This document shows positions 3,088 to 12,575 of a DNA stretch of 16,095 bases, piece after piece; the first letter of the stretch is position 1, and the number at the start of each line of letters is the position of its first letter. The position numbers and the translations under genes are program-made. The DNA comes from an uncultured Myxococcales bacterium (GTDB taxonomy: Bacteria; Myxococcota; UBA4151): contig CAXGWI010000079.1 of the NCBI GenBank assembly GCA_964013405.1, forward strand, positions 1 to 16,095, in the 5' to 3' direction. The notes below the pieces were generated by a model. It was not told the DNA's origin and ran no database searches. It was given only the letters and a program-made list of their open reading frames with translations.

Positions 3088-4317
3088 ATGATGCGTACAT
3101 CCCTCGTCCTGTCCTCCCTTTTCCTTCTCTGTGCTTGCCCGGGCGTGGTGCTCGATCAAGATGAAGGTGGTGGTGGCGGTTTGGCACCAAATATCCCCCC
3201 TCCCCAATGTGATCGAGACGGCTTTGATGTGGATTTCTCCACCGCCACCGCCGGTGTGGGCCGGCGTGGCGGGAAGCGCTACCTTCGTTATGATGTCCGA
3301 GGCGATGGCGAGGTCTTTGATAAGCTCGAGGTCATCGCCTATCTCCGGGATGACGAAGAAAGCCTGCCGGCCGGTGACGAACCGATCCGGCTCTTCGCCG
3401 AAGACGGCCTCGCAAACTGTGAGACCTGCGTCATTGCCTATCGGGGCTGTGATGGAGATACCTGTGCCGAAACTTATCTCGCTGATGGTGAACTCCTCGT
3501 CAGCTCGTCCGGGACCGAAGGTGACACCTTCAAGGCGAAACTCGTCTGGGATCGGGCGCAAACGATCTTCCGGGAGGTCGATGGCGACGGTGAGGTCCAC
3601 GAGCGGGGCTATGAGTTCTGCGGCTCTAACCTCACCTTTGAAGCGCCCATTGGCAACGACCGTAAGGGCAGTTGCAGCGACACCGGCGACGGCGCCAAGG
3701 TGGGTAATTTGCTCGCCGACTGGGCTTTGCCGAACTGCTACGGCGATATGGTCGGACTCCACGATGACTGTGGTCGAGTGAAGGCGAAGGTCCTCATGCT
3801 CACCACCGGTTGGTGCCCCGCCTGCGCGACTCGGGTCCCCCAAATGGAGACCGAGATGGCGCCGAAGGCTGCAGACGGTGCGCAAGTCTACTACCTTCTC
3901 GGTGAGATGGGTCGAGGCGAGCCGCCATCGCCAGCGGCGTGCATGGGCTACGCCCGGGGCAAGGGGATCGATCCTGCCCGCATGCTGATCGACAACGCGC
4001 AGATTCCCAATGGCAATTACGTGTCGTTCTACAACACGGTCTACGGTCGACCCTTCGACCAGCCAGACCTGGATCAAAATGACGGCAATGCGGTCAACTC
4101 AGCATTCAACCAGCAGCGGTACACGAAGCTGTCCACCTGCCCGTCCATGGACGACCGGGATGGCGATGGTGCACCGGACTACATGTGGGGTCTGCCCTAC
4201 ACGGCAGTCCTCGACGGCGAAAACAATCGTTACGTTTGGGGCAGCGGGGACTCAACGGTCTGCCCGAGCCCCTACGGCTCCCACAGCCAGGCTGTCACCG
4301 ACCTGTTGAACCGTTAA
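3088..4317 (+). CDS. Cys-rich lipoprotein with C-terminal thioredoxin-like (redoxin) domain
   Basis: AGGAG RBS; hydrophobic N-terminus ending LLCAC (lipobox-like); N-terminal Cys-rich domain with CETC; redoxin-like segment KVGNLLADWALPNCYGDMVGLHD...VLMLTTGWCPAC (CxxC at 3814-3825); DxDGDG acidic motifs. Confidence 0.7.
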   Translation: MMRTSLVLSSLFLLCACPGVVLDQDEGGGGGLAPNIPPPQCDRDGFDVDFSTATAGVGRRGGKRYLRYDVRGDGEVFDKLEVIAYLRDDEESLPAGDEPIRLFAEDGLANCETCVIAYRGCDGDTCAETYLADGELLVSSSGTEGDTFKAKLVWDRAQTIFREVDGDGEVHERGYEFCGSNLTFEAPIGNDRKGSCSDTGDGAKVGNLLADWALPNCYGDMVGLHDDCGRVKAKVLMLTTGWCPACATRVPQMETEMAPKAADGAQVYYLLGEMGRGEPPSPAACMGYARGKGIDPARMLIDNAQIPNGNYVSFYNTVYGRPFDQPDLDQNDGNAVNSAFNQQRYTKLSTCPSMDDRDGDGAPDYMWGLPYTAVLDGENNRYVWGSGDSTVCPSPYGSHSQAVTDLLNR

Positions 4318-4320
4318 ACC

Positions 4321-4647
4321 TTGCGCCCGCCGCTTTGGATCGGACCCCTATTGCTGGTCCTCGCCGCCCCCGCCGCCGCTCAGGATGTGAGCGGTGACGG
4401 TGGCTTAGACGGTGGCATCAGCGACACGGAGATTTGCGACAACTGCAGTCCAGCCGTCGTCGACTTCGAGGCCTGGGATGTGGGCCCGCAGGAGCGTCAG
4501 GATGCTGGTCTGCGGCAACGCCGGGCCCGCCCCGACGCCGGGATCCAAAATGCGCCTGAGTCCGGCGGCTTCGGTTGTAGCACCGGGGTCATGGGCCTGG
4601 AGCCCCTGTTCCTGCTCGGCCTGCTCCGACGTAGAAAGAAAAGGTAG
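4321..4647 (+). CDS. Small secreted protein with MYXO-CTERM-like sorting tail
   Basis: Signal peptide ending AAAQ, a low-complexity DGG/DAG-rich body with one CDNC motif, and the C-terminus GGFGCST-hydrophobic stretch-LLRRRKKR. It fills the gap between its neighbours (3 bp and 6 bp spacers). The TTG start is uncertain. Confidence 0.7.
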   Translation: MRPPLWIGPLLLVLAAPAAAQDVSGDGGLDGGISDTEICDNCSPAVVDFEAWDVGPQERQDAGLRQRRARPDAGIQNAPESGGFGCSTGVMGLEPLFLLGLLRRRKKR

Positions 4648-4653
4648 CGCACC

Positions 4654-5604
4654 ATGGTGGCTCTGCGCTCACTTCTCCTCCTTAGTCTCGCTTGCGTGCC
4701 CTCCGTCACGCCCACCCCCTACGAGCCCTATGCCCTCGACAATCAGGGCTTGATCGACTGTGCCGCGCCCCCGGCCTGTGACATCAACGCCGTGTTTTGT
4801 CCCTGCGCCGATGCGCCCAACTGGCAGTTGGAAGATTTCCAGAATGCAAGCCCACGCAAAGGTGAGACCTACGGAATTCAGGACCTATTGGGCGAAGGCA
4901 AGGTGGTCATCGTCAGCTTCTTCTTTGGTGGCTGCGATGCCTGCCATCAGCAAATGGCTGCCATGCAGATCATGCAGGATAAACTGCATGCCCAGGGTTA
5001 TACGGACGTCGTCTTTATCACCATCAACCAGAAGGAATACTCCAACGACACGGCCCAAGCTGAGTACTTCCGGCGCCGTAGTAGTATTGTTTGTAGCACC
5101 GGCGATTACCCCTCCTGTGACGAGAACGGAACGGTGCTCGTCACCTTCCCCCTCTTCCAGGACACCGTTGAGGGCGGCGGTTGGTCCTCCCATCAAGGGC
5201 AGAAGGACGACATCTTGATCTACCGGGCCGATGGGAAGCTCCACCGCTTCTACGGCTCCATGGAACGAGAGGATCCAGCCGAACGGCAGGATCCCAAGCT
5301 GGCCCTGGAAGCCAATCCCGACAACTTCCGCTTGTTGGAACGGGCCATTCAGTCGGCTTTCGGGGTCCAGGCCTGCACAGATGATAGCGACTGTGAAGCC
5401 ACTGGCGGATGGTGCCGGCTTCCCGATGGCAGCTGTGGCGGCGAAGGGGTCTGCGCCCCTAGCCCCCTCGAAGGCGAGGTCACACAATGCTGGGAAACCC
5501 TCATGCCCCAACCGGTCTGTGGCTGTAATGGCGAAACCTACCTTAACCGCTGTGCGTTAGAGGCGGCCGGGACCAGCCTTCTCTACGCAGGCACCTGTCA
5601 GTAA
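4654..5604 (+). CDS. Lipoprotein with selenoprotein-P-N-like thioredoxin-fold domain (CxxC) and C-terminal Kazal-type domain
   Basis: Lipobox LSLAC; VVIVSFFFGGCDAC; KLHAQGYTDVVFITIN; FPLFQD; WSSHQGQKDDILIYRADGKL; Kazal signature PVCGCNGETYLNRC...AG..LLYAGTC at the C-terminus. Confidence 0.75.
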   Translation: MVALRSLLLLSLACVPSVTPTPYEPYALDNQGLIDCAAPPACDINAVFCPCADAPNWQLEDFQNASPRKGETYGIQDLLGEGKVVIVSFFFGGCDACHQQMAAMQIMQDKLHAQGYTDVVFITINQKEYSNDTAQAEYFRRRSSIVCSTGDYPSCDENGTVLVTFPLFQDTVEGGGWSSHQGQKDDILIYRADGKLHRFYGSMEREDPAERQDPKLALEANPDNFRLLERAIQSAFGVQACTDDSDCEATGGWCRLPDGSCGGEGVCAPSPLEGEVTQCWETLMPQPVCGCNGETYLNRCALEAAGTSLLYAGTCQ

Positions 5605-5618
5605 AGGGAGAACGAGCC

Positions 5619-5981
5619 ATGCGATCGCTCCTTTTGACCTTGGCAGTCCTGAGTTTAGGCGGCTGCAAGGGCTATGACTCGAACAAGAACCTCGATCAGT
5701 TCACCGATGGAGAGATGTCGGCCCTGTGCCATTGGGCCTACCAGCTGCGGGGGGGCTCGAGTCGCCTGCAACAATGCGAGGACGCCGACGGCACCGCGGT
5801 CAGCGTTGTCCTCGATGTAGAGACTGCCGAGTTATCCCGCTGTGTAGGTATGCCGAGACCTGCCTGCCCAGCCATCTACTTTGAAGACTGTACCGAAGCC
5901 ATTGCTAACGATCCTTGCACTGGCGCCGCCAGCAAAGCGTGCTTGGACTGGAGCGACTACTGCGAACTGAAGGAAGATTGA
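5619..5981 (+). CDS. Small Cys-rich lipoprotein, function unknown
   Basis: GGGAG RBS, lipobox LGGC, eight further Cys in the mature region, and a TGATG overlap with the next gene. Confidence 0.75.
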   Translation: MRSLLLTLAVLSLGGCKGYDSNKNLDQFTDGEMSALCHWAYQLRGGSSRLQQCEDADGTAVSVVLDVETAELSRCVGMPRPACPAIYFEDCTEAIANDPCTGAASKACLDWSDYCELKED

Positions 5982-7501
5982 TGCGCCTTACCCTGACAGC
6001 CCTCGCCGCTCTGGCCCTTTTCTTCGCGCCCAACTGGGCCCAGGCTCAGTGTGCAACCTGTGGCAACCCGGCCGTCCAAGCGGGGGGACAGTCCTTCTCC
6101 GGTGAGCAGCCTGGGAGCGGCTTCGCGGCGGAGTTTATCTACGGCTACCTCAATCTCGATGATTTCGTGGACGGGGAAAACAACAACGCCCCTGTTTCGG
6201 CGGAGACCGTCAAAGACCTCATGGGTGTCGACAACTTCCGTATGACTGTCCACTCCACGACCCTGATCGGTCGTTACGGTATCAAGGGTGGACACACCTT
6301 TGGCTTGGTGGTTCCGGCTGGCTATCCCATCACGAACAAGGGTGGCAGTCCGAAGGGTCAGTTCGGCATCGGTGATTTGGATTTAAGCGCCACGCTCAAC
6401 TTGAAGGACCTCATCAGCGATAAACTGCCGGCCCTGAGTCTGAGACTTGGCACCGTCTTACCCACGGGCACCTTCAGCTTTGCGGGAACAGCCCAAGCCG
6501 TGGCCGCCGAGCAATACGTGAGTTTGGGCCGGGGCAGCTATTGGGGTTCGGCCGGGCTCAGCCTCTTTGGCAAGGTCACCGACGACCTCTCTTACTTGGC
6601 TTCGGTGAGTTATCAGCAGCCCTTCAACACCTACAAGACCGATGCTGGGGCTGGGCAGACCGCCACCTTCCGCTTTGGTCAGGAGATTCGGGCCAGCGGC
6701 GGGCTGATCTACCCACTCAAAAAGGGGGAGTGGAACCTCGTCCTTCAGGCCGACTTCTCCCAGCGTTCCGCCGCCATGCAGCAGCTCGCCGGTGAGACCG
6801 AAGCGACCCCCTTCGAAAAGACCGCTGGCAGCAATGCTAATCTCCTGCCTGCCATCAGTTGGACCAAGGACAAGCTGACCTCCACCGTCGCGATGACCTA
6901 CCCCATCTACTTCCAAGTGAAGTCGGTGGACATCATCCCCGACCCCAGCGTTTATCTCTCGTTCAGCTACCGCTTCGGCAGCTCGGCACCGACCGGACCC
7001 AAACCAGCCATCGAGCCGGGCGACGACCCCATCGACCCCAACGTGGTGGGCAAACTGCCGCCCGGCAAGATCACCATCGTGGACTACTGGGCCGAGTGGT
7101 GCCTCATCTGTAAAAAGATCACCCCCGGCATGAAGGCCTACACCAGCGCCTGGGACGATGTGCACTTCATCAAGGTGGACGCCACCAAGTGGGATGTGCC
7201 CGAGTTCGAGAAGTACCTGCCGGCCCAACCGAGCCTGCCGGTAATCGATATCTTCAATCGGGAGGGCAAACTGCATCAGCGCCTCTCCGGCGAGGCCTGC
7301 AGCGAGTTCGTCAACAACGGCTACAAGCTCCTCGATGGCCTGCCCGGCGGTGGCCCCAAAGTGAAAGCCGCCGCGAAGCCAGAGCCCGAGGAGGAGGTGC
7401 CAAGCACGGAGCAGGAGCCTGCGCCCGCTGCTGAGCCGGCCAAAGGCACCACAGGCGAAGTGGAGCCCGAGCCTATCCCGAGCATCGAGATCGCTAACTA
7501 A
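5981..7501 (+). CDS. Outer-membrane beta-barrel (COG4313/MetA-pathway 'transporter'-like) fused to a C-terminal thioredoxin domain
   Basis: Start moved to ATG 5981 (TGATG coupling). Signal peptide ending AQA, then QCATC. Barrel-family motifs GIGDLDLS, LRLGTVLPTG and SLGRGS, alternating amphipathic strands ending YLSFSYRF, a Pro-rich linker, Trx motif ITIVDYWAEWCLIC (CxxC 7100-7111) with FIKVD and LPVIDIF, and a P/E/A-rich tail. Confidence 0.7.
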   Translation: MRLTLTALAALALFFAPNWAQAQCATCGNPAVQAGGQSFSGEQPGSGFAAEFIYGYLNLDDFVDGENNNAPVSAETVKDLMGVDNFRMTVHSTTLIGRYGIKGGHTFGLVVPAGYPITNKGGSPKGQFGIGDLDLSATLNLKDLISDKLPALSLRLGTVLPTGTFSFAGTAQAVAAEQYVSLGRGSYWGSAGLSLFGKVTDDLSYLASVSYQQPFNTYKTDAGAGQTATFRFGQEIRASGGLIYPLKKGEWNLVLQADFSQRSAAMQQLAGETEATPFEKTAGSNANLLPAISWTKDKLTSTVAMTYPIYFQVKSVDIIPDPSVYLSFSYRFGSSAPTGPKPAIEPGDDPIDPNVVGKLPPGKITIVDYWAEWCLICKKITPGMKAYTSAWDDVHFIKVDATKWDVPEFEKYLPAQPSLPVIDIFNREGKLHQRLSGEACSEFVNNGYKLLDGLPGGGPKVKAAAKPEPEEEVPSTEQEPAPAAEPAKGTTGEVEPEPIPSIEIAN

Positions 7502-8162
7502 GCTGCTGCCCAGTCCACGTGGCGGGGCGACCTTGCCCCGGTGCGACCAATTCAAGGACACGGTCACTGAGCCGCTGAGCTTCGACCCGGTCGTGGGTCA
7601 CCATCAGCGCCGCGGCCCCCTCCAATTGGATTTGCTCCCGAAACCAAGCCCCGAGTTCGGAGCGCAGCTCCGTGTCCAAGTTGGCAAAGGGCTCATCGAG
7701 CAGCAGGAGCCGAGGCTTCGGCGCCAGGGCCCGGGCGAAGCCAACCCGCTGCTGCTGCCCGCCGCTGAGTTGGGCTGGAAGTCGATCTGCGAGGGGTGCA
7801 AGCCCCAAGCGCTCGAGCAGGGTCTCAGTACGCGCCTGGGCTTCAGCTTGGCCTTTCAGACCAAAGGCGACGTTCTGGGCCACCGTCATGTGACTAAAGA
7901 GGGCAAAGTCCTGAAAGACCATACCGACCCGGCGCCGCTGGGGTGGCAGGCCGCTCACGTTGTGGCCAGAAAGGTGGATCTCCCCCTCGAGGGGTTCCAA
8001 GAAGCCGGCGATGGCCCGCAGAAGACTGGACTTCCCCACACCGCTCGCCCCCACAACGGCAACGATCTCCCCCTCGGCCAGTTGCAAGGAGAGACCACCG
8101 GCGACCGCTTCGCCGTCGTAGCCAATCGCCAGTTTCTTCAACTCAAGGACCGCTTCAATCAT
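7494..8162 (-). CDS. fbpC: ABC transporter ATP-binding subunit (FbpC/PotA-like, short form)
   Basis: Walker A GASGVGKS, Q-loop VFQDFALF, signature LSGGQQQR, Walker B LLLLDEPF, H-loop VTHD. ATG 8162 follows GGAG and overlaps the permease stop. The symbol is family-level. Confidence 0.88.
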   Translation of the reverse strand: MIEAVLELKKLAIGYDGEAVAGGLSLQLAEGEIVAVVGASGVGKSSLLRAIAGFLEPLEGEIHLSGHNVSGLPPQRRRVGMVFQDFALFSHMTVAQNVAFGLKGQAEAQARTETLLERLGLAPLADRLPAQLSGGQQQRVGFARALAPKPRLLLLDEPFANLDTELRSELGAWFREQIQLEGAAALMVTHDRVEAQRLSDRVLELVAPGQGRPATWTGQQLS

Positions 8163-9891
8163 GGTCACTCCATCGCCTAAGCAGGCTTTGAGCCACAAGC
8201 ACCATCGCCAAAAGCAACAGAGCACTGACACCTAATTCAGCAAAGTGTGCGTCTTCGTGACCGTCATAAATAATGGTCGCCAGGGAATGGTGTCCGGCCG
8301 GCAACAGCATCAGTGTAATCGGCAATTCTTTGATGGCAGCGATAAAGGCCAGCAAAAACCCAGCGGCCGCTGCCGGGGCTAAGGTGGGCATTCGAATCTC
8401 GAAGAAAATCCGAGCGTTGGAAGCCCCGAGCGTTTGAGCCGCCTCCAAAGGTCGAGGGTCTTCCCGTAAAAATGCAGATTTCATCAGGCCGTATGGATGG
8501 GCAAGAAAGCGGAGTCCGAGCCCCAAAATCAGCAGCAGGAACAAGCCCTCCAAAACCTGAGCGATGCCATGGGGGAGGACTTGGACCAACTGGAGGAAGC
8601 CATAGGCCGTCAGCACACCGGGGAGCCCACTGACTCCGTACGCGATGAACTCAGTCCATGAACCCCCACCCCCTCTTTGGGCCGTCCAGCGGGCCGGAAT
8701 TCCGCCCAGAAGCAGAGCGATGCAACCGGCACCGAGTCCCAGGCCTGCAGTGGTGAGTGCGGCTGCACCCATGGGCATGATGAGAAAGGCTAGAGCCATC
8801 GGCACAACGACAAAGGCCACAGCCATCAACACGAACACAAAGGTCACAGCCACGAGCACAGCCACAGGCATGAGCGCAAACGAGACAGGAATGGGCATGA
8901 GCAACATGACCACTGCAAGGGGAAGAAAGCTCAGAAGGCGATAGCTAAGTCCAACCCACGCCGCCATAGGAGTCCCGAAGGCTCCTTCGAGGCCCCACTG
9001 GGCGATGACCACGAGGGGCAGGACCAGGGCTGCCCCCAGATACACGGCTTGCAAGGCGTAGACCCCAACGAGATGAATCGGCTTTGGACGGAGTCGACCA
9101 ACGCTTCGCAGGCCCGCCCGCCCGAGGGCTTCACTGCCCCTTTGGCCCTGCACCCAACGCCCAAGAGCGACCAAGGGCAAGACGGCTGCGACCATCACGA
9201 GCCCCAGGGCTGCGGGGTTGGGGCCCCCATACTTGGCGGCCTGGAACAGCTCCCAGGTCAGCACCCGGGTATTTAGCACCGCGACCGCGCCAAAGTCAGC
9301 CACGGCGTAGAGCAGGACCAGCAGGGCGCCAAAGGCGATGGCTGGCCGGAGTGCCGGCCACTGAACCTCACTCAAAAGGCGCCAGGGCCCCGCACCAAGG
9401 CTGCGGGCAGCCTCTTCCTGATCCCTAGCGAGGGCAGAGATAGCCGAGGACAGGGTGAGCTGAACATAGGGCGCACAGGCAAGGCCAAGCACAAAGACAC
9501 TGGCCCAGAAGCCCTCAAAGCGACCACTCAGGCCTAAGGGTTCTCCCAGGTGCCCTTTCGGAGCCAGCGCCTCCCGTATGGTAATGGCGAGAAGAAAGCT
9601 GGGCAAGACCAGTGGGAGCACAGTGAGGCGGGCGAGTAAGATCTGTCCCGGGTAATGCCAACGAGCTTGCACCCAGGCGAAGGGCGCACCGAAGAGAAAG
9701 GCGACGCCGCACACACAAAGGGCCAAACACAAGCTTCGCAGAAGCGTCCACCAAACGGATGGCCATGACAGGGGCACCGAGACCAAGCCGGGAGGCCCCC
9801 AGAACGCGAGCAAGGTGCCGACCAGAGGCAAGATCCCCAGGCCCAGACAGAGCCAGGTGGCCCAGCGGACCCAAGGAGCGGGCCGGTGCAC
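8155..9891 (-). CDS. fbpB: Iron(III) ABC transporter permease (FbpB/FutB-like, two BPD_transp_1 halves) with an extra hydrophobic insert
   Basis: Two EAA motifs (EEAARSLGA, LEAAQTLGA), plus VLPLVLPSF, ADFGAVAVL and IKELPITLML. The GTG start overlaps the TAG of the binding-protein gene. The symbol is family-level. Confidence 0.88.
   Translation of the reverse strand: MHRPAPWVRWATWLCLGLGILPLVGTLLAFWGPPGLVSVPLSWPSVWWTLLRSLCLALCVCGVAFLFGAPFAWVQARWHYPGQILLARLTVLPLVLPSFLLAITIREALAPKGHLGEPLGLSGRFEGFWASVFVLGLACAPYVQLTLSSAISALARDQEEAARSLGAGPWRLLSEVQWPALRPAIAFGALLVLLYAVADFGAVAVLNTRVLTWELFQAAKYGGPNPAALGLVMVAAVLPLVALGRWVQGQRGSEALGRAGLRSVGRLRPKPIHLVGVYALQAVYLGAALVLPLVVIAQWGLEGAFGTPMAAWVGLSYRLLSFLPLAVVMLLMPIPVSFALMPVAVLVAVTFVFVLMAVAFVVVPMALAFLIMPMGAAALTTAGLGLGAGCIALLLGGIPARWTAQRGGGGSWTEFIAYGVSGLPGVLTAYGFLQLVQVLPHGIAQVLEGLFLLLILGLGLRFLAHPYGLMKSAFLREDPRPLEAAQTLGASNARIFFEIRMPTLAPAAAAGFLLAFIAAIKELPITLMLLPAGHHSLATIIYDGHEDAHFAELGVSALLLLAMVLVAQSLLRRWSDHD
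8776..8856. repeat. Degenerate 27-bp tandem repeat (3 copies) inside the permease gene
   Basis: catgatgagaaaggctagagccatcgg / cacaacgacaaaggccacagccatcaa / cacgaacacaaaggtcacagccacgag, sharing a core aaagg(c/t)nanagcca. Confidence 0.65.
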
Positions 9892-10928
9892 TAGTCGATC
9901 CCCAACTCCCGCAGCAGAGTGAGACTGGCAGCCACATCATTGAGTGCCGCTTGCGTGTTTTGCGCCACCCCTTCGGGCGGTTTCACGTCGGGGTGGAGCG
10001 CCACGCCCTCGACCACAGGATACTCATAGGCTTTCTGCGTAAAGTAGCTCTGTCCTTTGGGGCTCAATAGGAATGCGATCAACTTCTCCGCGTACTCCAC
10101 TTGGTCACTGGATTTCGGAATCCCAACCCCCGCGAGCATCATCACATTGCCCGCATCACCCCCTTGAAAACTGTGATTTGCCGCCTTCAAGCCTGGATTC
10201 GCCGCTTTGATCTTATGTAGGTAATAGTGATTCACCCAGCCCATATCGATCTCGCCTAAATCCACCGCCTTCACTTGGGGCGAATTCTTTGGATAGCGAG
10301 CAGGATTTTGCGCATTCATGGCCGTGAGCCATGTCTTGGTCTTCTCCACGCCCCACAGGCTCCGCAACGCGCTCACATGGGCTTGCATGCTGGCGTTACC
10401 CGGCGCCCAACCGATCCGCCCCTTGTACTGAGGCAGGACGAGATCCTCTAAGCGCTGCGGCAATTCTTCGGCTTTCACCCGTTCCGGGGAATAGACCAAC
10501 ACTCGCAGGCGACCGCTGGTCGCAACCCAATGCTTCTTGGGCCCCCGAGCCGTCTCAGGAACCTTGGCCAAAAGAGCGTCGGGTAAGGGTCGCAAGTGCC
10601 CCCGGTCACCAAGGGTTGTGAGGTAACCGACCGCCTGGGCAAAGAACAGATCGGCATCGCTGCGATCGCCCTCGGTCACCAAGCGGTTCGCCAGCGCTTC
10701 TGTGTTCTTGTTGAAACGTAGCTTCACTTCCACGCCCTCGGTGGCAGCCCATTCCTTCAGGAGCGGCTCCACGAGGATGGCGCTGCGCCCTGAATAGATA
10801 GTGAAGACAGGTTTTTCGACGGCGACTTCTGGGGCTTTCTTAACCCCTTTTTCTGCCGCCGATTCTTGCGGCTGACTGGAACAGGCAAGTCCTGAGCTCA
10901 GACAAAACAAGAGGGCGAATCGTTGCAT
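9891..10928 (-). CDS. fbpA: Iron(III) ABC transporter substrate-binding lipoprotein (FbpA/FutA/AfuA-like)
   Basis: AGGAGA RBS and lipobox GLAC. Motifs TIYSGR, EGDRSDADLFF, GRLRVLVY, KGRIGWAPGNAS, the iron-ligating tandem Tyr in VNHYY, and EYPV. The symbol is family-level. Confidence 0.9.
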   Translation of the reverse strand: MQRFALLFCLSSGLACSSQPQESAAEKGVKKAPEVAVEKPVFTIYSGRSAILVEPLLKEWAATEGVEVKLRFNKNTEALANRLVTEGDRSDADLFFAQAVGYLTTLGDRGHLRPLPDALLAKVPETARGPKKHWVATSGRLRVLVYSPERVKAEELPQRLEDLVLPQYKGRIGWAPGNASMQAHVSALRSLWGVEKTKTWLTAMNAQNPARYPKNSPQVKAVDLGEIDMGWVNHYYLHKIKAANPGLKAANHSFQGGDAGNVMMLAGVGIPKSSDQVEYAEKLIAFLLSPKGQSYFTQKAYEYPVVEGVALHPDVKPPEGVAQNTQAALNDVAASLTLLRELGID

Positions 10929-11108: not shown

Positions 11109-12575
11109 GTGATGATGACCGAGAACCCTTATGCCACCGCTTTAGACGGACTGATCCTCGCTGACCCCGTCGCCGCCTTCTTCGCCTTTTGTCGGGAGCG
11201 AGAAGCCGTGCGGATTCGTCGGGCATCCGGTGCACCGGCTCCCTGGTCCCAGGACGAAATCTTCCAAAGGGGTCGTTTCCTCAACGTGTTTCGGGAAGAT
11301 GACCGCGGCAGTCAGGCATTGCTGCGCTTTGCTAAGCCGGTGGCAAAAGACTTAGAGCGCTTAGTTCATGCCCTCTTCTTTGCTCGTTGGTGCAATCGCC
11401 AATCCACCCTGGACAGCCTCTCTGCTAATCTGCTGGAATCACCGGAGGCATTGATTCCAACTCTTGAGGCCTTGCCCGAGCCGCCATGGTGTAACTGGAC
11501 GGCCTACCCTGTGGAGCCGATCCGCTGGCAGGGGAAACTCTACAGTCGCTGGGACAGCGCCACCGACTTGTTTCGGCGCATCCGCCCGGAACTGACGGAC
11601 GTCATCTGCGCTGCCGGTGGCGATGTCATCAAGGCCACCGAGGCGGTCAACGGCTTGCTTCACATGGACAACGACTTTCCTATCTTTATGGCGGTTATGG
11701 ATCTGGCCTGGTTTCGCCCCGACATCATCGACCCTGCGAGTCCGGTACCCACCGGGATCGGCGCCGCTCCATTTCTGGACCGCCTCGAAAATGCCCTCGG
11801 CGCAAAGGATCACCAAGATACAGCGCAGCGGATGATCGAGCTGCAGCGGACTTTTTGGCCCGAAGCCAAACGCCCCTTTCAACCCATCGATATCGAATAC
11901 CTGGCCTGCGAATGCCGGAAGTATTACAGCTACGTGAACGGCACCAAAGCCTTCGAGGGTAAAAACCGATTTCAAGCGGGGCGCACGGCCCGGCTGAGTT
12001 TTGACCTGGACCTCCCGAGGCCTCAGGAACCTGAGATAACCACCCAGATCCACATCATTGCGGGGGGACCCTGTTCCGGTAAGACCACGCTTCTCAATGG
12101 GCTCGCTGAAGCCGGCTACCGGGTGGAGGTCGAAACTGCGGAACGGATGTTGAAGGAGGGCATTGCCGCTGGGCAGACAGCCCAGGAACTCCGGGCCGAC
12201 CCCCTGCAATGGCAGCAGGAGGTGATGCGCCAGGATTATGCCCTTTTTCATCGCTTACCGGTCGACGAGTTGGTCTTCGCTGACACCTCGTTCATCGAGA
12301 CCCTGGTCTTTGCCGAGCGAGCCGGGATGGAACTGGGCCCCAATCTGCGCCGTTGGCTGCGTCACAAGCGCTATCGGCGCGTCTTCTTTCTCGAGCCACT
12401 CCCGGCCTACGAAGAAAGCGCTGTCCGCATCGAATCCCAGGATCTTGCGAAGCAGATCAGTGCGCAGGTACGTGCCGCCTATGAGGCCTACGACTACGAA
12501 CTGATCCCCGTGCCAGCGGCACCCTTAGCCGAGCGCATCGCCTTCATCGAGTCGTGCCTGAAAGCGGACGGCTAG
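11109..12575 (+). CDS. Fusion of aGPT-Pplase1 / 5-hmdU DNA kinase helical domain (N-term) and AAA_28/NadR-type P-loop NTPase/kinase (C-term)
   Basis: The N-terminal FFAFCRERE..R..R..G..APWSQDEIF...RFLNVFREDDR.S and IDIEYLACECRKY match the aGPT-Pplase1 pattern as I recall it. The C-terminal IIAGGPCSGKTTLL..L...GY..E.E.A, VFADTS, Y..VFFLEP and Y.LI.VP....ERI.FI match AAA_28. GGAG lies upstream; the start could be 11109, 11112 or 11115. Confidence 0.75.
   Translation: MMMTENPYATALDGLILADPVAAFFAFCREREAVRIRRASGAPAPWSQDEIFQRGRFLNVFREDDRGSQALLRFAKPVAKDLERLVHALFFARWCNRQSTLDSLSANLLESPEALIPTLEALPEPPWCNWTAYPVEPIRWQGKLYSRWDSATDLFRRIRPELTDVICAAGGDVIKATEAVNGLLHMDNDFPIFMAVMDLAWFRPDIIDPASPVPTGIGAAPFLDRLENALGAKDHQDTAQRMIELQRTFWPEAKRPFQPIDIEYLACECRKYYSYVNGTKAFEGKNRFQAGRTARLSFDLDLPRPQEPEITTQIHIIAGGPCSGKTTLLNGLAEAGYRVEVETAERMLKEGIAAGQTAQELRADPLQWQQEVMRQDYALFHRLPVDELVFADTSFIETLVFAERAGMELGPNLRRWLRHKRYRRVFFLEPLPAYEESAVRIESQDLAKQISAQVRAAYEAYDYELIPVPAAPLAERIAFIESCLKADG

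Follow-up and report, generated by a model that had tools for sequence, protein, structure and literature searches.

The gene at 4654-5604 of the window, by which we mean the whole 16,095-nucleotide stretch analysed here, from a contig of an uncultured Myxococcales bacterium, raises the question of whether bacteria encode relatives of the N-terminal domain of selenoprotein P (SelP or SELENOP) and how close these stand to the animal protein. In the available part of PMC2397514, SelP is distantly linked to TlpA/ResA by fold recognition and its homologs are placed only in animals; likewise, the available part of PMC7539508 lists SELENOP as unique to multicellular organisms. Within a literature coverage that lay mostly outside subscription journals, we found no paper on a bacterial SelP-like family. 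Neither SELENOP nor selenoprotein P occurs as a whole word in PMC13188914 or PMC13326102, whose supplements could list such proteins under redoxin or AhpC names, and the available part of PMC10298544 holds nothing further on the origin of SelP. Databases already show the domain match, as these bacterial proteins carry precomputed PF04592 annotations.

A predicted lipoprotein with a SelP_N match

The features of the gene and of its neighbours are collected in Table 1. The initial annotation had compared seven peptide blocks (e.g. CADAPNW, FPLFQD and LERAIQSAF) with SELENOP, and these lie in one frame of the open reading frame, in the order given there. Equivalent blocks occur in the same order in a mammalian-type SelP locus (L122); the last block, the C-terminal helix, falls outside the local profile-profile alignment. 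The span assigned to the SelP-like redoxin, 4798-5380, does contain a redoxin domain, but the reading frame is longer, and also encodes a signal peptide with Cys14 and a Cys-rich, Kazal-like tail. Both CxxC codons are TGC, including that of the first Cys at 4933-4935, as had been stated.

Table 1. Coordinates of the window gene, its features and its neighbours.
Position	Strand	Feature	Remarks
4654..5604	+	CDS, 316 aa (the window protein), predicted lipoprotein, SelP_N-like redoxin domain and Cys-rich/Kazal-like tail	P0001
4654..4695	+	Predicted signal peptide ending at Cys14, likely lipidated, lipobox non-canonical	From sequence
4798..5367	+	Thioredoxin-fold (TlpA/ResA/Prx-type) domain, residues 49-238 (~242), matching SelP_N	Initial annotation: to 5380
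4933..4944	+	Active-site CxxC, C94-D-A-C97; first Cys is the Sec position of SelP and many bacterial relatives
4951..4953	+	Gln100, three residues past the CxxC	Alignment
5092..5118	+	Class-specific insert with two invariant Cys (C147, C155), likely a structural disulfide
5182..5223	+	W-x-x-H-x-G-x-K-D-D-x-x-I-Y motif; Asp185 (5206-5208) at the cis-proline position
5374..5598	+	Cys-rich region and Kazal-like module (Kazal_2 match, residues 278-308)	29.1 bits, cut-off 22.8
3088..4317	+	Upstream gene, predicted lipoprotein containing another CxxC redoxin domain	Weak AhpC-TSA match, below cut-off
4321..4647	+	Small protein, C-terminus resembling MYXO-CTERM	14.7 bits, cut-off 15.85
5619..5981	+	Small predicted lipoprotein, rich in Cys
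5915..7501	+	Exported-looking protein, thioredoxin CxxC domain at its C-terminus	Likely start 5981, overlapping the preceding stop

All six genomes of the window's class carry two members each, and the resulting 12 sequences all have CxxC and the Kazal-like tail. Cys14 is unchanged in 12 of 12, in agreement with the lipoprotein nature predicted initially, and so are C147 and C155 of the two-Cys insert (CSTGDYPSC) that had been singled out. We infer that the protein is lipid-anchored in the envelope, as its N-terminus would predict. A lipobox-like pattern was found, using a crude regular expression, in 99 of the 123 representatives having an N-terminal extension. The insert-bearing segment measures 84-118 residues in the window's class, the median being 63 in the representatives and the range 66-71 in SelP, and the tail is confined to the window's class subgroup and close relatives. 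Insert and tail are likely disulfide-stabilised add-ons of this lineage, for localisation or partner binding.

In Pfam, SelP_N was the best of seven families matched by the whole protein (34.7 bits, E 1.6e-8, cut-off 23.2), and reached 36.9 bits with residues 49-238 alone. AhpC-TSA (28.5, cut-off 26) and Kazal_2 (26.7, cut-off 22.8) also passed, and Redoxin (22.2) and SCO1-SenC (20.5, cut-off 22.8) remained below their cut-offs; the comparison of SelP_N with AhpC-TSA and Redoxin that had been suggested as a check therefore comes out for SelP_N. The margin over AhpC-TSA is 6 bits, and is reversed in the N-terminal half (AhpC-TSA 30.7, SelP_N 29.3). The C-terminal half alone matched no Pfam family at E<=1. 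Residues 239-316 match Kazal and not SelP_N, and bacterial SelP_N matches stop near profile position 125. The best NCBIfam match was NF053656 (TUGYCR), whose cut-off of 100 bits led us to reject membership at 41.6.

AlphaFold predicts a confident thioredoxin fold for residues ~40-240, with pLDDT mostly 83-97 outside the insert, and a tail that is poor in the first of two models and moderate in the second. The top structural matches are ResA (Foldseek, E 5e-8), DsbE and Etrx2, and the VIA structural match to 3gl3 has Z 13.9 and rmsd 2.3 over 136 aligned residues. Neither a SELENOP chain (in one search, among the best 60 of 106 matches) nor a solved structure of the SelP domain was seen in our PDB searches. 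The ESM Atlas neighbours of P0019 were unnamed archaeal and AhpC-like clusters, with no SelP cluster once generic families had been skipped, a result that is uninformative to mildly negative, as the filter also drops any SelP cluster with one generic-family member. Word-based homolog searches, a method insensitive here, found bacterial proteins (3, 9 and 6 in number) and never an animal SelP.

The wider bacterial family

A phmmer search of 1.84 billion representatives gave 151 matches to the window protein. The best 150 of these are mostly predicted lipoproteins with the motifs W-C-x-x-C, FPLFQD and W..H.G.KDD, and at E<=1e-5 match SelP_N (96), Redoxin (80) and AhpC-TSA (75); in four family fragments without CxxC, SelP_N is the sole Pfam match. 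Of 401 genomes from the phylum, nine match SelP_N, and of 14 control genomes, none. Scanning 185,579 genomes with the family motif yielded 36 loci, namely, 23 UxxC, 12 CxxC and one chance match, mostly from Myxococcota/Deltaproteobacteria MAGs and Plesiocystis pacifica; the pattern is strict, so that these loci do not equal the range of the family. A pattern scan of metagenomes gave 21 loci: ten animal-type SelP (six near-complete domains, from which our animal profile was built, and four pieces), six bacterial members, four of them with TGA, and five chance matches. Finally, an alignment search of 301 genomes matched 35, and extended to the curated TUGYCR clade and to a small clade with KHD, whose members nearly all have TGA. 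The window protein is a divergent, long-branch, Cys-only member of this mostly Myxococcota family, and not the member nearest to SelP.

The Cys member of the P0052/P0168 cluster, which counts 394 cluster members and includes many marine ones, has a C-terminal extension unlike the myxobacterial ones, and suggests that the family reaches beyond Myxococcota. P0147 (451 aa, Logan) shows the N-terminal and FQD/G.K.D motifs of the family without CxxC and looks like a eukaryotic single-pass membrane protein; it is a possible non-animal eukaryotic homolog. In P0130 the first Cys is replaced by Trp, perhaps a TGA read as Trp, and P0131, P0135, P0139 and P0150 begin just past the motif, which is where Sec genes wrongly called as truncated would start. 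The KHD clade (L037, L039-L041, L058) has His at the cis-proline position, and TGA in four of five; it lies below the NF053656 cut-off, shows no SelP_N matches where tested, and is likely another uncatalogued selenoprotein group. Plesiocystis pacifica SIR-1, a cultured organism, has a Cys member (L101) although its genome has selA.

Kinship with animal SelP

The window domain scores 48.9 bits on the profile of six animal SelP, on which 500 shuffles reach at most 3.8, and BLAST against the same six gives 23-27% identity over ~147 residues. On this profile the core family scores 45.5-83.3 bits (44 rows), TUGYCR 3.9-28.2 (26) and generic redoxins -2.5 to 16.6 (20), with 134 of 142 non-generic representatives above the best generic row. 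Because the animal and core sets had both been picked by the KDD motif, the profile was rebuilt without it; the ranking of the groups was kept (core 19.4-60.5, median 39.5; window 35.5; TUGYCR at most 22.5, median 15.6; generic at most 17.4), and 125 of 142 representatives stayed above the best generic row. With a score of 16.3 on the animal profile, the paralog on contig C2 does not stand out from generic redoxins, and C2-type paralogs behave likewise. Five of the six near-complete animal SelP domains were scanned with SelP_N and score 153-282 bits, and the best pairwise BLAST identities of animal SelP with core members are 32-41%. In hhalign, SelP scores 184 with the core, 108 with the class subgroup, 82 with TUGYCR and 49 with TlpA-like rows.

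Two characters are shared. The Asp185 column holds Asp in 6/6 SelP and 29/29 core rows, Arg in 12/12 TUGYCR and Pro in 12/15 generic redoxins, and among class rows Asp in five and Gly in three, where the cis-proline site is placed by sequence alignment and the six animal rows were themselves selected by the G-x-K-D-D motif. The Gln100 column holds Gln in 6/6 SelP, 29/29 core and 12/12 TUGYCR rows, in the class rows also, and in 1/15 generic redoxins. Kinship between the bacterial family and SelP is thus well supported by scores and characters, and by these measures of sequence the UxxC members are the nearest bacterial relatives of the animal SelP N-terminal domain found here.

Selenocysteine in the bacterial relatives

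Homologs had been expected to use TGA/Sec with a bacterial SECIS, and this is what we found. UxxC accounts for 23 of the 36 motif loci, and a SECIS-like hairpin follows 28 of 28 TGA forms and none of 18 Cys forms, the window gene among the latter, under a rule (GG-started 3-nt loop, at least 4 Watson-Crick pairs, 17, 21 or 25 nt past the codon) whose three loop positions were picked after viewing earlier folds, one position alone giving 23 of 28; four duplicate loci were dropped before counting. A loose generic bSECIS rule separates poorly (25/28 TGA vs 10/22 Cys). In the 23 hairpins at +17, cells changed on both sides number 21, against 7.2±1.9 in shuffles (0/500 as high), counts that include relatedness and codon constraint; slid controls had a lower pairing and covariation score. 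The hairpins fit the bSECIS model given in the available part of PMC13188914. Among the genomes compared, which took in 20 of the 23 UxxC and 10 of the 12 CxxC loci, selA is over cut-off in 18/20 with TGA vs 4/10 with Cys, and it was also found in 4/4 other genomes. Judged on these genomic signals, Sec in the bacterial relatives is real. UxxC members fall below the curated NCBIfam cut-off where tested, and are therefore probably annotated as truncated genes.

A second type of SECIS-like hairpin occurs in L085, L087, L089 and L100, 21-31 nt after the TGA, and encodes S-R-L-[ED]. This group has Q-A-S-R past the motif in common with the vertebrate-type SelP loci L120 and L122, and L085 is the sister of SelP in one of our trees; this could be coincidence.

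The window gene was rejected as a selenoprotein gene, given TGC at 4933, no SECIS-like hairpin and no Sec machinery found. The source genome (3.9 Mb, 94% complete) has no selA, selB or selD over cut-off, and no tRNA-Sec among 43 ARAGORN tRNA lines, although ARAGORN can miss tRNA-Sec. In the class, selA was found in 0/6 genomes, and selD was over cut-off in 0/5 searched. The Cys form of the window protein fits such a lineage. The genome's single paralog, that on C2, shares the architecture of the window protein, and a same-genus ortholog is 82-85% identical to the window protein.

Phylogeny and the origin of SelP

Trees were built using IQ-TREE with LG+C20, and AU tests were run on quick trees of 47- and 42-row sets. 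In the 84-row tree, whose bootstrap had not settled, SelP is one clade (100/99) joined with the TGA member L113 (94/85), inside a clade with core, class and KHD rows (87/92) and with TUGYCR outside. In the 47-row tree, built without motif columns, SelP groups with the TGA members L085 (90/87), L072 and L108 (84/85), and the backbone is open. In the 42-row tree, which leaves out six long-branch or KHD rows, the class subgroup is sister to core plus SelP (92/90), and SelP falls with L072/L085/L108 (85/92). The sister of SelP differs among the three trees; all place SelP among Sec-using bacterial members, and no such join is starred.

An origin of SelP within TlpA-like rows was rejected (AU p 0.0003, two TlpA-like rows). 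The tests did not reject SelP outside the bacterial family (p 0.17, 0.24), SelP with TUGYCR (p 0.50), SelP with the class (p 0.21) or the class subgroup with the outgroups (p 0.58, 0.39). In the phylogeny with metazoan SelP that the initial annotation had proposed, a clade of SelP, core family and class subgroup appears in the 84- and 42-row trees, and the class subgroup may also lie outside the clade of SelP and core family. The annotation's placement of the window protein in the SelP clade holds as regards the SelP_N match, the Asp at the cis-proline site and the Gln past the CxxC; what we see, however, is a long-branch offshoot, and not the nearest relative of SelP.

It is at this point that the window protein could be read as a generic divergent redoxin, SelP likeness being a property of the core family and the subgroup appearing intermediate through long branches. 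Besides the AU results for the class subgroup, its equal hhalign scores with SelP and TlpA-like rows (108 vs 106; TUGYCR, 109) agree with this. Yet the same subgroup scores 250 with the core family, from which nearly all phmmer matches come, it keeps KDD and Gln, the window domain has about twice the motif-free score of the best generic row, and both clade supports that join it to the core family and SelP speak against such a reading, to which we give a very slim chance.

Tentatively, animal SelP may descend from a UxxC lipoprotein of this family that was transferred horizontally from a myxobacterium and already contained Sec, the family being an uncatalogued bacterial selenoprotein group with its own SECIS hairpins, and the window gene having reverted to Cys upon loss of the Sec machinery; this scenario is plausible, though we would not bet on it. 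Local identity of up to 41%, a UxxC with Sec at the corresponding place and a derived loop found on both sides restrict the origin of SelP to a clade that can be named, so that phylogeny can test it. The family also provides natural small single-domain Cys versions, including that of Plesiocystis pacifica (L101), for structural and enzymatic work on the SelP domain, and could model its predicted peroxide-removing chemistry. The UxxC core family is therefore a more valuable object than the window gene, a derived Cys member.

Genomic context

In the other genus of the class, the redoxin-lipoprotein and MYXO-CTERM-like genes hold the same upstream positions at one copy, and a DegP-like (protease) gene lies 3' of the ortholog. 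A homolog of the small Cys-rich lipoprotein is also found 3' of the C2 paralog (E 1e-7). Flank clustering revealed no neighbour kept across the whole family, and neither promoter-like sites nor a surplus of terminators appear between 1400 and 7700. One RNA run contained 0.10 of the words, which gives no sign of expression. The downstream thioredoxin-domain protein is possibly a reducing partner of the window protein. Its long exported-looking N-terminal region, with a CxxC-like pair at the start, is fused to the thioredoxin domain, has no Pfam match and may be an outer-membrane barrel.

Elsewhere in the window, ispG/gcpE (1620-2996, +) lies directly upstream of the redoxin cluster on the same strand. 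A 5-hmdU DNA kinase helical domain (PF18723) is fused to an AAA_28 domain at 11109-12575 (+), in a cellular genome; an iron-type ABC permease (8155-9891, -) has an unusually long hydrophobic low-complexity insertion at about 8650-8950; and the AT skew is 0.3-0.4 across 8000-10000.

Proposed function

The window protein is probably a lipid-anchored envelope CxxC redoxin, a Cys-only offshoot of the SelP-like family, which by analogy with SelP would most likely reduce hydroperoxides or small oxidants and not dock protein disulfides; we hold this with moderate confidence. Cys94, a Sec in relatives, would attack the oxidant, Cys97 would resolve to give a disulfide, and its re-reduction would fall to a thioredoxin-type donor in the envelope, possibly the CxxC protein encoded two genes downstream. 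As cited in the available part of PMC5133445, the redox motif of SelP has peroxidase activity when reduced through thioredoxin reductase-1. The family is without the peroxiredoxin Arg, and the peroxidase step hence rests on analogy with SelP. According to the available part of PMC2757866, the cis-Pro probably makes up the site where Trx/CMPs bind polypeptides, and peroxiredoxins have Arg in its place.

The best solved folds, those of the ResA/DsbE disulfide reductases, argue against a peroxidase-type reading, and raise an alternative in which a ResA/TlpA/DsbE-like protein-disulfide reductase or isomerase keeps the many Cys-rich envelope proteins folded, its kinship with SelP being real but of little bearing on chemistry. 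The CxxC dithiol would suit such an enzyme, as would the Etrx2 match, the neighbouring genes, which encode exported proteins rich in Cys and two further CxxC proteins, and the DegP-like gene that follows the ortholog in the other genus. However, the cis-proline typical of these enzymes is Asp here, and Gln stands where most TlpA-like rows have Glu, a residue that we take to be Glu80 of ResA, consistent with the PDB title 'ResA E80Q'. Flank clustering, moreover, gave no conserved cytochrome-c-maturation or Dsb neighbours, and we regard this alternative as unlikely.

With the cis-proline missing, the CxxC thiolates could also act as ligands, and the protein might be a Sco-like one that binds or delivers metal; cis-Pro may prevent metal binding to CxxC, as stated in the available part of PMC2757866. 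The best PDB sequence match is a Sco lipoprotein (E 0.0014), the acidic KDD loop lies near the site, and the SCO1-SenC match in Pfam is weak and below its cut-off. Sco, though, uses CxxxC, most genome-derived relatives carry Sec as the first residue of the motif, which suggests redox catalysis, and no oxidase or metal-transport neighbours are conserved. Metal handling thus has a slim chance of being the function, and reduction of small oxidants is the reading that we retain.

Comparison with known systems

Peroxiredoxins have Arg at the cis-proline position, where the window protein has Asp, for which the adjacent Lys184 might substitute. TlpA, ResA and DsbE (PF00578 AhpC-TSA, PF08534 Redoxin) have in common with it the fold (Z 13-14), CxxC, Prx-type insertions and membrane anchoring, but carry cis-Pro and Glu where it has Asp and Gln, at 17-20% identity. 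The TUGYCR proteins of NF053656 come from the same phylum and are for the most part lipoprotein-like UxxC redoxins, with the Gln in common and a neighbouring position in trees. Nevertheless, their true members score 150-216 bits, have Arg at the cis-proline site and match SelP_N at E<=0.01 in 0/6 cases, whereas all 38 relatives tested here stay below the cut-off of 100 (at most 93.7; the Sec member P0159, 73.6).

Animal SELENOP, SelPa and SelPb (PF04592) are likewise exported, and their U/CxxC is in register with that of the family members. The matched fold region spans approximately profile positions 6-125, the animal region past this point being absent from the window protein. Both sides have the Gln past the motif, and the W...G-x-K-D-D-x-x-I-Y with Asp at the cis-proline site. 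The Sec (TGA) and SECIS of the animal UxxC are not in the window gene, but are present in its bacterial relatives.
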